Source: Polaribacter sejongensis (GTDB taxonomy: Bacteria; Bacteroidota; Bacteroidia; Flavobacteriales; Flavobacteriaceae). Taken from it: a stretch of 64,000 nt of DNA. The stretch lies in contig CATITK010000002.1 of assembly GCA_949545755.1 (NCBI GenBank), positions 3,516 through 67,515 on the forward strand, given 5' to 3'. This document shows, piece after piece, positions 3 through 6,031 of this stretch (its first letter is position 1; the number at the start of each line of letters is the position of its first letter). Under the pieces are notes generated by a model, which was not told where the DNA came from, made no database searches, and saw nothing but the letters and a program-made list of their open reading frames with translations. A program made the translations under genes and the position numbers.

Positions 3-830
3 CTTTTATTTTTAGCAACGCTATTTATAAGTACTTCTGGCGTTTTAGGAAAATACATTGCTTTATCTCCAGAAACAATTATTTTTTGCAGAGCCAGTCT
101 TGCCGCAGTTTTCATTTATATTTTTTGTCGCATAAAAAAAATAGATTTAAAAATTAAAACCAAAAAAGATGGGATTGCTTTTGTAATAAGTGGTTTTTTC
201 ATGGCAGCTCATTGGGTAACCTATTTTTATGCTTTAAAGCTTTCTAATGTAGCAGTCGGGATGTTATCCATGTATACTTTCCCCGTGATAACTGCTTTAT
301 TAGAGCCTTTTTTCTCCAAACAGCAACGAAGTCTAATGCATGTCTTTCTTGCTTTTTTAGTTTTAATTGGGGTCTATTTCCTAGTACCCAATTTTTCTCT
401 GCAAAGCAATCTTTTAAAAGGAATTTTATTTGGCATTTTGTCTGCTTTCTGTTTTGCGTTGAGAAATCTTACGTTGAAAAAACATGTTCAGAAATACAAT
501 GGAAGTATGTTAATGCTGCACCAAATGATTATTGTAACGGTCCTATTAATGCCTGTTCTATTTTTCAGTGATTTTTCTAACTTGGAAAGTCAATTGCCTT
601 TATTAATTCTAGTCGCTTTGCTAACCACTGCAATAGGACACACCATGTTAGTGAGTTCTCTAAAACATTTTTCGGTGGCTACAGCGAGTATTATTAGTAG
701 TGTGCAGCCCATTTTTGGAATTGCAATCGCCTACTTCTTTGTCAATGAAATACCAAATTTTAGTACTTTTATTGGGGGAAGCTTAATTTTAGTAACCGTA
801 GTAATTGAAAGTATCCGAAGTGGAAAATAA
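3..830 (+). CDS. EamA/DMT family transporter (5' end outside window)
   Basis: Frame is open from base 3 (LLFLATLFISTSGVLGKYI...). Many hydrophobic helices, with DMT-like motifs (YTFPVITALLEP; SSVQPIFGIAIAYFF.NE). Confidence 0.85.
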   Translation, partial: LLFLATLFISTSGVLGKYIALSPETIIFCRASLAAVFIYIFCRIKKIDLKIKTKKDGIAFVISGFFMAAHWVTYFYALKLSNVAVGMLSMYTFPVITALLEPFFSKQQRSLMHVFLAFLVLIGVYFLVPNFSLQSNLLKGILFGILSAFCFALRNLTLKKHVQKYNGSMLMLHQMIIVTVLLMPVLFFSDFSNLESQLPLLILVALLTTAIGHTMLVSSLKHFSVATASIISSVQPIFGIAIAYFFVNEIPNFSTFIGGSLILVTVVIESIRSGK

Positions 831-900: not shown

Positions 901-1968
901 TTAAAACAAGTCTTTATTACTAATATTTAAATAATTTCGCTTTACAAAATCTAAGATTGTTTCTAGAATTTCACCCATATTTTGGCATTCTTTAAACTTA
1001 ACATCTCCTACAAATTTTATCAAATGTTTTCTTAGTAACGCTACATTTTCTGGAAAAGAAATGGTATCTGATTTCATGCACTTTATTAACCGCTTCGTCC
1101 TTCTTGGAGCTGTTATCATTCTTTTTGCCATGAAGGAACGCTCTTCTATTTTGTACTGCAAAATAGAATCGTTTTGCAATTTTTTACTGACCATCTCTAT
1201 CATGTTAAAATTCTCTTTTAGAAACTGCAAGTTGTACACTTTTAAGTTTCCTTCAAAAGATTGTTGATCAAAATCGATGGCTCTAATTTTATAAATAATA
1301 TGATCAAAATCGTGCGTGGGTGTAATTACATAATTGTAAGACCGCATGTCTCCAAGCAAACGAATAAGGCAGCGTTCTTTAAATTTTACAAATTCTTTGG
1401 CAATTTGTGATTTTTCTAATTCGGTGCATTTGGGTAGCATATCTCTAATAAAATCGTCTCCTGGAATACCTGCAATGTGCTCTTCTATTAAAGTATCTTT
1501 ATGTACCAAAAAATTCATGTTATGAGGCGACAAAATATGTTCTAATTCTAAACCATAAATGCGAGAAGCATCTGCTTTTTTTACATAAAAATAGGTGAAA
1601 TTATCATTTAAAATATTTCTAATTTTAATTCTAAAAGGCTTCGAATTTCCAAAGGTACAATAGTCAATAGCATCTACATTTAAAAATGGAATGCTATCAT
1701 CATTACCATCTGAATGCAACATGGTATATACTTTCTTTAAGCTTCTGTCAATATCTTCTCTTTCAAATTGAGAATAATAAGCTCTTACCCAAAGCGTGTC
1801 TTCATCGTTTTTATCGTAGACAACAACAGAACCTTGAAAACGCAATAGATCATCATAAAAAATAGGGATTTTTATGATCCTATTGTAGTTTTTCAAATAC
1901 GCGTTTAGCATTTCATTTACAGGAAATGTTGGCTTTTTCTTGGACATTAGTTTTCTTTCTACAGCCAT
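901..1968 (-). CDS. Conserved hypothetical protein with atypical (PI3K/PI4K/HipA-like) kinase motifs
   Basis: 355-aa ORF with, in order, NSKPFRI, FYVKK, LIEEHIAG, LLGDMRSYN (DxxxxN) and RAIDFD. The CDS is solid; the kinase function is inferred. Confidence 0.6.
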   Translation of the reverse strand: MAVERKLMSKKKPTFPVNEMLNAYLKNYNRIIKIPIFYDDLLRFQGSVVVYDKNDEDTLWVRAYYSQFEREDIDRSLKKVYTMLHSDGNDDSIPFLNVDAIDYCTFGNSKPFRIKIRNILNDNFTYFYVKKADASRIYGLELEHILSPHNMNFLVHKDTLIEEHIAGIPGDDFIRDMLPKCTELEKSQIAKEFVKFKERCLIRLLGDMRSYNYVITPTHDFDHIIYKIRAIDFDQQSFEGNLKVYNLQFLKENFNMIEMVSKKLQNDSILQYKIEERSFMAKRMITAPRRTKRLIKCMKSDTISFPENVALLRKHLIKFVGDVKFKECQNMGEILETILDFVKRNYLNISNKDLF

Positions 1969-2002
1969 CGTCTATGTTGAATTTCTTCAAAAATAAGGAT
2001 TA

Positions 2003-3103
2003 TTAAGCAAGTTCAAACATCTTTCCTGGCAAAGGTTTTAAGATTCCTCTTAATTCCATTTGTAGCAAAAGTGCGGATAATTGATAAATAGGGATAGTAC
2101 ATTCTAAAGAAATAACATCTAACAATTGCGCTCCTTTTTTATGCAATAAATCGTAAATTTTTTGTTCTACTTCGTTTAATTCTATAAACAATTCTCTTTG
2201 GATTGGTTTGGGCTTTTCTTGCACATCCCAATTTAACATTTTTACAACATCTGATGCTGAACTCAGTAAATGTGCTTTGTTGTTTTTTATTAAACTCGTA
2301 CAACCTCTGCTATAAATATCTGTCGTTCTTCCTGGAACGGCAAAGACATCTCTGTCGTAAGAATTGGCAATATCTGCGGTTACCAAAGAACCTCCTTTGG
2401 AGGCCGATTCTATAATAATTGTTGCCTTAGAAATACCTGCAACGATTCTATTTCGTCTTAAAAAATTTTCTCTTAACGGCGCGTCTTCATGCCAAAATTC
2501 CGTTAAAAACCCACCATTTTCATTTACTTGATGAATATATTTTTTATGTACCTTTGGATAAATTTCCTCTAAACCATGAGCTAAGACCGCAATCGTTTGT
2601 AGGTTGTTTTCTATCGCAGCCTTGTGCGCACAGATATCTACACCGTAAGCAAAACCACTTACAATGATCGGGTTGTATGCTGAAATTTCTTTTACAAATT
2701 GATTGCAAAAATCCCGCCCATATGAACTCATATTTCTAGTACCCACAATAGAAATAATTTTAGGATTCGAAAAATCTAGGTTTCCATCTTTAAATAACAA
2801 AATAGGACTATCAATACAATGTTGAAGATTTGTTGGATATTCATCCTCTAAAAAATAAGAATAAGAAATCTTATTTTTCTGAATATAGGCAAATTCTTTT
2901 GCGGCTAAGGCGATGTTTTTAGGATCAAAAAGATGCTTTAAAACATGACTTCCTATGCCGTTTATTTTTGATAATAAAGCCGCCTTTTCTTTAAAAACTT
3001 GAGCAACATCCCCCACGTTTACAATGAGTTTTTTGGCTAAAATATCGCCAATAGCTTTGCATTTTTGTAAACGCAAAACTGCCAATAATTTTTCTTCTTC
3101 CAA
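2003..3103 (-). CDS. dprA: DNA-processing protein DprA
   Basis: IVGTR, VSGFAYGVD, FLRRNRIVAG, GGSLVTA and VFAVPG motifs plus a C-terminal winged helix (LLQMELRG...LPG). Probable TTG start at 3103; the track start at 3160 looks over-extended. Confidence 0.95.
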   Translation of the reverse strand: MEEEKLLAVLRLQKCKAIGDILAKKLIVNVGDVAQVFKEKAALLSKINGIGSHVLKHLFDPKNIALAAKEFAYIQKNKISYSYFLEDEYPTNLQHCIDSPILLFKDGNLDFSNPKIISIVGTRNMSSYGRDFCNQFVKEISAYNPIIVSGFAYGVDICAHKAAIENNLQTIAVLAHGLEEIYPKVHKKYIHQVNENGGFLTEFWHEDAPLRENFLRRNRIVAGISKATIIIESASKGGSLVTADIANSYDRDVFAVPGRTTDIYSRGCTSLIKNNKAHLLSSASDVVKMLNWDVQEKPKPIQRELFIELNEVEQKIYDLLHKKGAQLLDVISLECTIPIYQLSALLLQMELRGILKPLPGKMFELA

Positions 3104-3186
3104 TTTCCTAACAATTTGAATACCAATATATAAAATAATTGTTAATAAAAAACAGGACAAAGTGTTTCACAAAACAGCAAAATTTT

Positions 3187-3199: not shown

Positions 3200-4105
3200 A
3201 TGACATTAGCTATTTACATTAACGATTTATTATACAGATATGATTGTGTAATTGTTCCAGATTTTGGAGGATTTGTAACCAATAGAATAGGTGCAAAAAT
3301 GAAAAATCATATTTTCACTCCACCAACAAAACAGATTACGTTTAACAGCCTGTTAAAGCATAATGATGGTTTATTAGCGAATTATATCGCTTCTTCAGAG
3401 AACATTTCTTTTGAGAAAGCAAATACCGTTATTTCTCTCGCTGTAATTAAGTGGCAAAATGAATTGCAAACCAAAGCTGTTATTATAGAAAACGTAGGAA
3501 ATTTATCTTTAAGCGAAGGGAAGAAAATAATTTTTGAACCAATCGTTACTGTTAATTATCTAACAGAATCTTTCGGACTGGCAACTATAGAAACTTCTGC
3601 TATTCTTAGACTTAAAGAACAAGCAAAGCCTTTGGCACCTGTTCTTATCCAAAGCGAGAAAAAAGGAGTTGCTACCTTTATTAAATACGCTGCTACTGTG
3701 GCCATTTTATTAACATTAGGATATACAGGTTATAATGGACATCAAAATGAGCAGCAAAACAAGGTGGTTGCAAATCAACAAATAGCGATTCAAAAAAAGA
3801 TACAAGCAGCAACTTTTGTCATTTCAAATCCATTACCTACAATTAATTTAAATGTTGTTAGAGAGTTTTCCAAACCTTTTCATGTGGTTGCAGGTGCTTT
3901 TCAGTTTGTCGAAAATGCAGAAAGAAAAGTAAAACTCCTAAGAGCAAAAGGATTTGATGCTAAAATAATTGGCGTAAACGAATGGGGACTTACCCAAGTT
4001 ACCTTCAATAGTTTTGCAAGCCGTAATGAAGCAACAAATCATCTTTACAAAATTCAAAAAACAATTTCAAGTGACGCTTGGTTGTTGATTAGAACTTTAA
4101 AATAA
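3200..4105 (+). CDS. HU/CCDC81-like domain plus SPOR domain protein
   Basis: N-terminal LLYRYDCVIVPDFGGF...FN..LKHNDGLLA, one TM helix, and a C-terminal SPOR-like FHVVAGAF...NAER...AWLL. Confidence 0.8.
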   Translation: MTLAIYINDLLYRYDCVIVPDFGGFVTNRIGAKMKNHIFTPPTKQITFNSLLKHNDGLLANYIASSENISFEKANTVISLAVIKWQNELQTKAVIIENVGNLSLSEGKKIIFEPIVTVNYLTESFGLATIETSAILRLKEQAKPLAPVLIQSEKKGVATFIKYAATVAILLTLGYTGYNGHQNEQQNKVVANQQIAIQKKIQAATFVISNPLPTINLNVVREFSKPFHVVAGAFQFVENAERKVKLLRAKGFDAKIIGVNEWGLTQVTFNSFASRNEATNHLYKIQKTISSDAWLLIRTLK

Positions 4106-4174: not shown

Positions 4175-4684
4175 ATGGAAGCAAAAACACCAAAAGAATC
4201 TTTAACAGTACTTACCGATTTGGTATTACCGGGTGATACCAATTATTTAGACAACCTTTTTGGCGGTGAGTTGTTAGCAAGAATGGATCGAGCTTGCAGT
4301 ATTGCCGCTAGAAGACATTCTAGAGGCATCGTTGTTACTGCCTCTGTAAACCATGTTGCTTTCAACAAAGCAGTACCTATGGGAAGTGTGGTAACGATAG
4401 AAGCCAAAGTTTCTAGGGCTTTTAAATCTTCTATGGAAATCTATGTAGATGTTTGGATCGAAGACAGACAGTCTCGATCAAGAACAAAAGTAAATGAAGG
4501 CATTTACACTTTTGTTGCAGTAGATGAAATAGGAAGACCGGTTATAGTTCCCCAAATTACACCAGAAACAGACTTAGAAAAAGAACGTTTTGAAGGGGCT
4601 CTTAGACGCAAACAATTGAGTTTGGTACTTGCAGGGAAATTAAAACCAACTGAAGCTACTGCCCTAAAAGCATTGTTCAATTAA
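4175..4684 (+). CDS. Acyl-CoA thioesterase (hotdog fold, YciA-like)
   Basis: VLPGDTNYLDNLFGGELLARMD, VVTASV and YTFVAVD motifs. Confidence 0.9.
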   Translation: MEAKTPKESLTVLTDLVLPGDTNYLDNLFGGELLARMDRACSIAARRHSRGIVVTASVNHVAFNKAVPMGSVVTIEAKVSRAFKSSMEIYVDVWIEDRQSRSRTKVNEGIYTFVAVDEIGRPVIVPQITPETDLEKERFEGALRRKQLSLVLAGKLKPTEATALKALFN

Positions 4685-4795: not shown

Positions 4796-6031
4796 CTATC
4801 TTTTTAAAATCCAAGAAGACGGATTTAAACGTGTCGTGTTTTTAAACAGCACAAAAATTAACTTGGTTTTTTTAGAAACTTTGTCTGTAAAAATCTGACC
4901 AATTCTTTGTCCTGTTTTAATTTTATCTCCTTTTTTAACATAGGTTTTTTCTAAGTTATTATAAGAAGAAATATAATTCCCGTGTTGAATTAACACATTT
5001 TTTCTACCTTCAGAACTCACTAAAACATTTAGCACTTCCCCATTAAAAATAGCTTCCGCATAATTTCCTTGTCGTGTAACAATATGCAAACCTGTTCCAT
5101 TTATTGTAATTCCTGGAAATGATGGGTGTGGCTGGTTTCCAAACTTTCTAACAACAATACCCTGATCTACAGGCCAAGGCAAAAACCCTTTATTAAGCTC
5201 AAATTTTGCAGCTAGAGCTTTCGCCTCGGGACTTAAAATAAAGACGTTCTTCTCAACTAGTTTTGAGTTGTTTTTTTGTTTTGATTTTGCAATTCTATTT
5301 GCTCTTGCAATTTCTTCACGAATCTTTCGATCAATTTTAGCTACGATCCTTTTCTCTTCTCTAATTTTATTTTGAAGTTCCTTTTTATACGTACTCTCTT
5401 TTTCCTTAATCGCTGTTATTAACTTTTCTTGCTCCTGTTTATCAACCTCTATTTGATCTTTTTGTCTTTTTTGAAAAACAATTAGGGTATCTTTTAAGGT
5501 CTTTTGAAAAACTAAAGAATCATTCAACAGCTGAACTTGATTCGTTTGAACCACAATATCTTCTCCTTGATTTTTTCTAAAAGAAGTATATTGTTTCATG
5601 TACTCCATCCTTTTGTATGCTTGGTAGAAGTTTTTTGATGAAAGTAAAAACAGGGTTCTACTTTGTTGCGATTTACTTTTGTAAGATTTAAAAATCATCG
5701 CCGCGTAATCCTCTTTTAGGTCAGCTAACTTTTTATTTAAGTTTTCAAGTTCCACTTGACTAACCTGTATTTCTTTAGATAAAATAGCGGCTTCAGAATT
5801 TATAGTCGCAATTAATAGCGTTCTCACTTCTATTTTTTTTTGAATATCTTTTAAATCTTCTAAGGCATTTTTTCCTTTCTTTTTTTCATTAAAAAGCAGA
5901 TTGTTTACCTGTTTAATTTCTTTATTCAGCTTTTTGCGTTGTACTTCTAATTGTTTTCTAGTTTGTCCAAATACAGAAAAAACACTTAAGCAAAAAATTA
6001 AAATTAGGGTATATCTTTTTTTGTTTTTCAC
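4796..6031 (-). CDS. Murein hydrolase activator EnvC family (coiled coil plus degenerate M23 domain)
   Basis: Signal peptide, long coiled coil and LPWPV. The M23 Zn-ligand positions are degenerate (GTGLHI, YNNL), as in EnvC. Confidence 0.85.
   Translation of the reverse strand: MKNKKRYTLILIFCLSVFSVFGQTRKQLEVQRKKLNKEIKQVNNLLFNEKKKGKNALEDLKDIQKKIEVRTLLIATINSEAAILSKEIQVSQVELENLNKKLADLKEDYAAMIFKSYKSKSQQSRTLFLLSSKNFYQAYKRMEYMKQYTSFRKNQGEDIVVQTNQVQLLNDSLVFQKTLKDTLIVFQKRQKDQIEVDKQEQEKLITAIKEKESTYKKELQNKIREEKRIVAKIDRKIREEIARANRIAKSKQKNNSKLVEKNVFILSPEAKALAAKFELNKGFLPWPVDQGIVVRKFGNQPHPSFPGITINGTGLHIVTRQGNYAEAIFNGEVLNVLVSSEGRKNVLIQHGNYISSYNNLEKTYVKKGDKIKTGQRIGQIFTDKVSKKTKLIFVLFKNTTRLNPSSWILKR

Follow-up and report, generated by a model that had tools for sequence, protein, structure and literature searches.

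What does the unnamed gene that follows dprA in Polaribacter sejongensis encode, and does its place behind a DNA-processing gene say anything about its role? The locus lies near the start of a 64,000-nt stretch of contig CATITK010000002.1 (hereafter the window, meaning this whole stretch), where an open reading frame (ORF) with an ATG start occupies positions 901–1968 on the minus strand and specifies a protein of 355 amino acids (aa). From its motifs, the gene was originally predicted to encode an uncharacterised atypical kinase of PI3K/HipA type, possibly co-expressed with dprA. Taken together, the results make it likely that the protein has a protein-kinase-like fold with a PI3K-like active site, that it is a member of the SEAE1 family, and that its link to dprA is to be rejected. 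New here are the negative evidence on inositol lipids, the signal of a promoter belonging to the kinase gene itself, and a lead from an operon with bshA.

The fold was predicted with AlphaFold2 from a 48-sequence alignment, giving a model with a mean predicted local distance difference test score (pLDDT) of 91.9 and a predicted TM-score (pTM) of 0.89. A Foldseek search of the Protein Data Bank (PDB) returned 233 matches at E ≤ 0.001; every listed match is a kinase-fold protein, and the top ones (VPS34, p110 isoforms, PI4KA, mTOR and Tra1) have a probability of 1.00. When the model was compared with structure representatives using VIA-align 2, 50 of the 50 best matches were of the kinase (protein-kinase-like) fold, and the alignments spanned residues 18–354. 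The Z scores descend from VPS34 (13.5), ATM and PI4KIIIbeta (13.1 each) and Tel1 (12.7), through SMG1 (11.7), PI4KIIalpha (11.1), CotH (10.6) and CtkA (9.4), to MavQ (9.3), actin-fragmin kinase (8.9), WaaP (8.5) and HipA (8.2). The predicted structure is a protein-kinase-like fold, as had been expected from the motifs. The double likeness to PI3K and HipA stands in its first half, the PI3K/PI4K/PIKK group being closest (Z 11–13.5), whereas HipA is a more distant neighbour. At the level of sequence, the protein has no match in Pfam (E ≤ 1) or NCBIfam, the 48 relatives scanned with Pfam gave scattered non-kinase matches and none to a kinase family, and searches of PDB sequences by protein and by profile gave chance matches only.

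Conservation was assessed in 150 representatives of 50%-identity clusters, aligned to a profile, in which the commonest residue per column averages 56%. Relatives are plentiful: one homology search found at least 8000 sequences at E ≤ 0.001, and a second gave 648 representatives of 50%-identity clusters. Five motifs had been picked out in the protein, and recomputing their coordinates bore out both their positions, all on the minus strand, and their N- to C-terminal order. The first, GNSKPFRI (residues 107–114; nt 1627–1650), forms, through N108, S109, P111, F112 and R113, the phosphate-binding loop between strands 1 and 2 of the N-lobe sheet (residues 96–104 and 112–118), with N108, P111, F112 and R113 conserved at 93–99%. 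The Lys of the 'S-K-P' loop had been counted as a motif residue and has to be dropped, as K110 is variable and the conserved loop is G-N-S-x-P-F-R. FYVKK (residues 127–131; nt 1576–1590) belongs to the beta-3 strand (123–131), with the predicted ATP-binding K130 near its end. K130 is conserved at 95%, D133 at 96% and R136 at 92%, the latter two standing at the start of helix 134–146, the helix-C equivalent in the AlphaFold2 model. LIEEH (residues 160–164; nt 1477–1491) is hinge-like and lies at the end of the N-lobe, where residues 159–163 form a strand; E162 and H164 are both conserved at 93%. The catalytic loop LLGDMRSYN (residues 204–212; nt 1333–1359), with its D-x4-N pattern, directly follows the long helix 183–203 and is conserved at 93–97% from L204 to M208 and at N212. 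Finally, IDFD (residues 231–234; nt 1267–1278), the DFG-equivalent, comes after a beta hairpin (213–230), with D232, F233 and D234 conserved at 93–94%.

Each of the following reaches at least 91% in the 150 representatives: N108, P111, F112, R113, K130, D133, R136, E162, H164, L204, L205, G206, D207, M208, N212, D232, F233, D234, Q235 and Q236. A separate 20-sequence alignment, extending to about 30% identity, agrees closely. Besides the start Met, its invariant residues are N108, P111, F112, L204, L205, G206, D207 and N212, and the nearly invariant columns include K130, D133, S135, R136, E162, H164, D232-F233-D234, Q235 and Q236. The Lys/Asp/Asn/Asp set expected of a kinase (K130, D207, N212 and D232) is conserved at 93–96% in the 150 representatives and lies on the expected secondary-structure elements; variation in homologues that would count against a kinase was not seen. 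With a kinase-like model, best structural matches that are all PI3K, PI4K or PIKK proteins, and a conserved catalytic set, the assignment as an atypical kinase is upheld.

A kinase-fold family named SEAE1 was described in a September 2026 preprint, with WP_147203046.1 of Segetibacter aerophilus as its founder (bioRxiv 10.64898/2026.09.18.752743). According to that account there are about 7,900 homologues, mostly in Bacteroidota, with members mentioned in Verrucomicrobiota; they are structurally closest to PI3Ks, their relationship to PF00454 is undetectable by HHpred (E = 250), and K140, R146, D216, N221, D241 and D243 are the ATP, catalytic and Mg residues in an AlphaFold3 model with ATP (bioRxiv 10.64898/2026.09.18.752743). 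A relative of the window protein, P0129 (43% identity, E 2.3e-79), carries exactly K140, R146, D216, N221, D241 and D243, and these align with K130, R136, D207, N212, D232 and D234 of the Polaribacter protein. The spacing of the six residues is identical in the SEAE1 founder (K, +6 R, D-x4-N, +20 D-x-D), and both proteins are stand-alone, about 350 aa long, mostly found in Bacteroidota and without a Pfam match. The gene neighbours differ, being PAP2, SmpB and AccD in Segetibacter, dprA here and bshA in Rhodothermales-type lineages. We infer from the residue numbering that the P0129 cluster is that of the founder and that the kinase belongs to the SEAE1 family. The epithet 'uncharacterised' in the original prediction has to be qualified in that the family already had a name, and the proper label is that of a SEAE1 family member, described but not characterised.

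On this model, ATP would be gripped by the GNSxPFR loop together with Lys130 of strand beta-3, and Asp234 would be partnered by Arg136 of the helix-C equivalent. Asp207 would act as the catalytic base, and Asn212 and Asp232 would bind two Mg2+ ions. We infer that the gene encodes a catalytically competent atypical kinase, belonging to a bacterial branch that has diverged within the protein-kinase-like superfamily.

The kinase gene is widespread in the family to which Polaribacter belongs. In a sample of 201 Flavobacteriaceae genomes, one per genus and 169 of them of high quality, it was found in 158 (134 of the high-quality set) at 59–74% identity, nearly always as one match per genome. It is present in 32 of 151 Bacteroidota genomes, where two large families lack it (0/31 and 0/22), and in 29 of 81 genomes of the class containing Rhodothermales. 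Identity is 66–90% among loci of the Polaribacter/Tenacibaculum clade (86% for the orthologue in Polaribacter MED152), 65–70% in other Flavobacteriaceae genera, 45–50% in other families of the class and 40–45% in other classes. This steady fall with taxonomic distance argues for vertical descent rather than for a mobile toxin or defence gene, and the distribution fits a single-copy chromosomal gene inherited vertically with losses; a PADLOC search gave no match for the kinase. With 59–74% identity across about 160 genera and a complete kinase active site, it has few equals in conservation among the unnamed proteins of marine Flavobacteriaceae.

The gene does lie 34 bp downstream of dprA (positions 2003–3160, minus strand) on the same strand and with no antitoxin-like ORF adjacent, as originally described. 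The dprA product matches Pfam DNA_processg_A (1.3e-73) and DprA_WH, and scores 215.6 bits on TIGR00732. As it is the only DprA-family gene of the genome (one copy) and passes the TIGR00732 equivalog cut-off (191.15 bits), it is read as an ordinary dprA. The same product also matches the PADLOC models ShosA (1.3e-56) and PsyrA (1.3e-24), which looks like family homology and not a defence module.

The arrangement with dprA is confined to one clade. Among 80 Flavobacteriaceae loci, dprA lies within 5 kb of the kinase gene in 18, all from Polaribacter, Tenacibaculum or close relatives, and in three of these another gene stands between the two. In the other 62 loci, no other gene shares the strand of the kinase gene; a pair of ABC transporter genes lies divergently on one side of it, and unrelated genes converge on it from the other (NA37 nucleoid protein, PRiA4_ORF3, CtaA, CCA-adding enzyme and Sua5). 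Within the 34-bp spacer of the window lies a promoter-like −7 element (TAnnTTTG; TATTTTTG, positions 1988–1995, minus strand), 20–27 nt before the ATG. We take TAnnTTTG to be the −7 promoter consensus of the Bacteroidota sigma-A factor. Of the 80 loci, 45 have it in the 70 nt that precede the kinase ORF, against about 3.6 expected from the background frequency, and 30 of the 45 occurrences fall at −22 to −27 from the start codon. Because the motif is enriched at a near-fixed distance upstream, the kinase gene very probably has its own promoter, and in Polaribacter it is probably transcribed from this promoter in the spacer. A scan with the sigma-70 consensus, which does not model Bacteroidota promoters, scored the region no better than shuffles.

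Four metatranscriptome runs gave contigs over parts of both genes, and none of these spans the dprA–kinase junction with 31 nt on each side. As DNA carry-over is possible, these contigs show neither expression nor co-transcription, and they speak neither for nor against read-through from dprA. Possible co-expression with dprA is not sustained as a functional link: with adjacency in 18 of 80 loci only and a promoter-like motif in front of the kinase gene itself, coupling of the two genes is unlikely. The position behind dprA would be a lineage-specific rearrangement, and the dprA neighbourhood a local accident of gene order.

Several other readings of the protein have to be weighed against that of a soluble, active SEAE1 kinase. 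The fold might be kept without phosphotransfer, in a non-catalytic pseudokinase or scaffold; the activity of family members is a matter of prediction, and the 'RH' of the PI3K DRHxxN loop has become 'MR' here. However, conservation of the phosphate loop and of the Lys, Asp, Asn, Asp set is 93–99% over relatives down to about 30% identity, and since such a pattern is typical of active enzymes, an active enzyme is the better fit and a pseudokinase very improbable. In the preprint, SEAE1 is suggested to be a lipid kinase with inositol phospholipids as its substrates, on the basis of its likeness to PI3K/PI4K and of a neighbouring PAP2 phosphatase in Segetibacter (bioRxiv 10.64898/2026.09.18.752743). 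The closest solved structures are indeed PI3K and PI4K, and the Legionella lipid kinase MavQ is also matched, but the PAP2 neighbourhood is Segetibacter-specific by the preprint's own account (bioRxiv 10.64898/2026.09.18.752743). In addition, PF01658 (myo-inositol-1-phosphate synthase) was detected in the control genome of B. thetaiotaomicron and in just one of the 201 Flavobacteriaceae genomes (0/169 of high quality), against 158 with the kinase, and neither PF01658 nor PF07994 was found in the Polaribacter genome, which is 89% complete. Judged by hydropathy, the kinase is a soluble protein with no predicted membrane segment (highest 19-residue window 0.87), and the loop after the DFD (DFDQQ) appears polar and not basic. 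Given how rare PF01658 is beside the kinase, an inositol lipid is quite unlikely as the substrate of the flavobacterial members; a lipid without inositol may still be phosphorylated.

A protein Ser/Thr kinase, as PIKKs, CotH, CtkA and HipA are, with a regulatory target such as BshA (Rhodothermales-type lineages) or, in Polaribacter, a DNA-processing protein, would accord with the presence of PIKKs (ATM, Z 13.1; SMG1, 11.7), CotH (10.6), CtkA (9.4) and actin-fragmin kinase (8.9) among the structural matches, and operon partners can be substrates. Yet no partner protein is conserved across lineages, the adjacency to dprA is not conserved, and the protein has no regulatory or docking domains, fusions being rare singletons, so this role is also unlikely. 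The likeness to HipA suggests, lastly, a toxin of a toxin-antitoxin or defence module, in which the DprA-like neighbour would be the antitoxin, as in ShosTA and PsyrTA. HipA structures match at Z 7.8–8.2, the HipA_2 cluster of the ESM Atlas is found at a cosine of 0.90 (rank 28, 132 of 256 features shared), and the dprA product matches the ShosA and PsyrA models of PADLOC. Against this, the protein matches neither HipA_C (PF07804) nor HipA_2 (PF20613) of Pfam at E ≤ 1 and has no PADLOC match, and its gene is flanked by dprA and an EamA transporter gene, with no HipB-like ORF. The gene occurs once per genome in nearly all of the 158 positive genomes, a distribution neither patchy nor mobile; the supposed antitoxin clears the equivalog cut-off and has no DprA-family paralogue in the genome; and in 62 of 80 loci dprA is not near the kinase gene. 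The kinase is not a HipA toxin, a role so improbable that it can be set aside. With the dprA link found to be incidental and an inositol lipid found to be unlikely, two tempting readings are removed.

For the preferred reading, that of an active SEAE1 kinase, gene order in a distant class provides the first concrete substrates that can be tested. Within the class to which Rhodothermales belongs, 19 of the 29 genomes with the kinase, from eight families, have bshA directly upstream of the kinase gene on the same strand. The spacers range from −4 (a 4-nt overlap) to 86 nt, with 12 of the 19 at 20 nt or less, and the adjacent bshA genes score 552–581 bits on TIGR03999 (cut-off 273.7). Polaribacter MED152 makes N-methyl-bacillithiol (PMC6282198), and Hiras et al. 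(2018) argued that bacillithiols are perhaps the most widespread low-molecular-weight thiols in bacteria (PMC6282198). From the tight two-gene bshA–kinase arrangement in these eight families, we offer the tentative guess that the substrate is the hydroxyl of a soluble glycoside tied to bacillithiol or N-methyl-bacillithiol metabolism. The more specific proposal is doubtful: that the kinase performs an ATP-dependent step in the metabolism of these thiols, either phosphorylating the thiol or a malate intermediate carrying N-acetylglucosamine or glucosamine (GlcNAc-/GlcN-malate), or else controlling BshA. If correct, such a step would explain both the tight bshA–kinase operon and why aerobic Bacteroidota using these thiols have kept the gene. 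A link to bacillithiol, itself a tentative one, would bring an ATP-dependent step or a point of control into the metabolism of widespread thiols. Should it fail, the family would still be without a function, and Pfam and NCBIfam are without a model for it.

In the same class, a convergent gene for a metallo-beta-lactamase (MBL)-fold hydrolase lies downstream of the kinase gene in 20 of the 29 genomes, seven of them without bshA adjacency. Its best NCBIfam match, hydroxyacylglutathione hydrolase, is below cut-off, and it could be a thiol-dependent, glyoxalase II-like enzyme.

A number of points weigh against the interpretation put forward here. The catalytic function of all family members is known by prediction, and the equivalence to the catalytic residues of PI3K relies on topology and the model of the preprint, as aligned ranges are all that the fold searches give. 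The RNA contigs decide the dprA–kinase junction in neither direction. The link to bshA is drawn from the order of genes in a single class, whose members' common descent inflates the count, and in class Bacteroidia bshA is a neighbour of the kinase gene in no genome but one, where the kinase gene lies 544 nt upstream of bshA. The pathway genes are moreover found with or without the kinase, bshA in 142 of 151 Bacteroidota and 190 of 201 Flavobacteriaceae genomes, and bshC in all 81 genomes. All 32 kinase-bearing genomes of the Bacteroidota sample have bshA, yet a gene so nearly universal gives this co-occurrence no discriminating power. Since bshA and bshC are near-universal regardless of the kinase, it is not needed for bacillithiol synthesis and would be at most an accessory.

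The exceptional Bacteroidia genome belongs to Flavobacteriaceae (G114:C1:3594985-3597690), and its two genes are on the same strand with the kinase gene first, the reverse of the Rhodothermales-type order. In the Polaribacter genome, bshA (contig C95) and the kinase gene (contig C2) are on separate contigs. The kinase was also considered as a replacement for BshC, a role rejected by the presence of bshC in 81 of 81 genomes.

Elsewhere in class Bacteroidia, outside Flavobacteriaceae, the neighbours of the kinase gene are all different and no partner is shared; they include a periplasmic binding protein, MFS, DUF2130, flavodoxin/Rnf-like, SIMPL, GntR, BNR-repeat and Rce1-like proteins. In one genome of the class (L097:6543-9479), the kinase gene is part of a same-strand run, with flavodoxin on one side and RseC/MucC-like and 4Fe-4S (Rnf-like) genes on the other, a redox context. 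Fused forms are rare and uninformative: two long proteins, each a singleton (767 and 748 aa), and a fusion to a Zn ribbon. The latter, the metagenome relative P0124 (491 aa), has an N-terminal TFIIB-type zinc ribbon (1.5e-10) joined to the kinase and belongs to a two-member cluster. Some close homologues (P0035, P0045, P0046 and P0077) carry one or other of two database names that no search supports and that are considered mis-annotations, namely 'aspartate carbamoyltransferase regulatory subunit' (JGI) and 'T4 RNA ligase 1-like N-terminal domain-containing protein' (UniRef).

The immediate surroundings of the gene in the window are as follows. The gene for the EamA-family transporter (positions 3–830, plus strand) is truncated by the window start and converges on the kinase gene; this neighbour is retained in 13 of the 18 dprA-linked loci. 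No helix-turn-helix or antitoxin-like ORF was found beside the kinase gene among the window ORFs and their Pfam matches. On the other side, a gene divergent from dprA (positions 3200–4105, plus strand) encodes a protein of 301 aa that combines two CCDC81-like HU domains with a SPOR domain at the C-terminus, and the dprA-side block continues with genes for a 4HBT thioesterase (4175–4684) and an M23 peptidase (4796–6031). The block of dprA, HU-SPOR, 4HBT thioesterase and M23 peptidase genes is syntenic in Polaribacter and Tenacibaculum loci.

Among known kinases, the protein compares best with the PI3K/PI4K/PIKK group (PF00454; VPS34 2x6f, PI4KIIIbeta 8q6f, ATM 8oxm), whose members are its best structural matches, aligning 258–284 residues across the range 18–354. 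It differs from them in sequence, with identities of 8–12% and no sequence-profile match; the aligned root-mean-square deviation (rmsd) is 4.3–5.3 Å, and it lacks their helical, C2, FAT and other accessory domains. Three PI3K motifs appear analogous, comprising an S-x-P phosphate loop, a Lys followed at +3 by Asp and at +6 by Arg (FKxGDDLRQD), and G-D-x4-N followed by I-D-F. Between the GDRHxxN/IDFG signature and GDMRSYN/IDFD here, the spacing and the Asp, Asn and Asp residues are kept, while Arg-His has changed to Met-Arg (DRH to DMR) and Gly to Asp (DFG to DFD). The kinase is thus of PI3K/PI4K type by fold and motif logic, and outside PF00454 by sequence definition. With the HipA/HipT proteins (PF07804, PF20613; 4pu3, 5k98, 7ab3) it shares the protein-kinase-like fold and the D-x4-N loop (Z 7.8–8.2), but the Z scores are below those of the PI3K group, a Pfam match and a HipB/HipS partner are both lacking, and the gene is a conserved chromosomal one. 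Similar in size are the stand-alone, or nearly stand-alone, kinases CotH (5jda), CtkA (3akj), MavQ (7m7a) and WaaP (6dfl), which match at Z 8.5–10.6 with no detectable sequence similarity, and whose substrates (spore-coat proteins, host proteins, phosphatidylinositol and lipopolysaccharide heptose, respectively) are without a demonstrated counterpart here. The lowest rmsd to the kinase model, 3.8 Å, is that of WaaP, a kinase fold able to phosphorylate a sugar hydroxyl.

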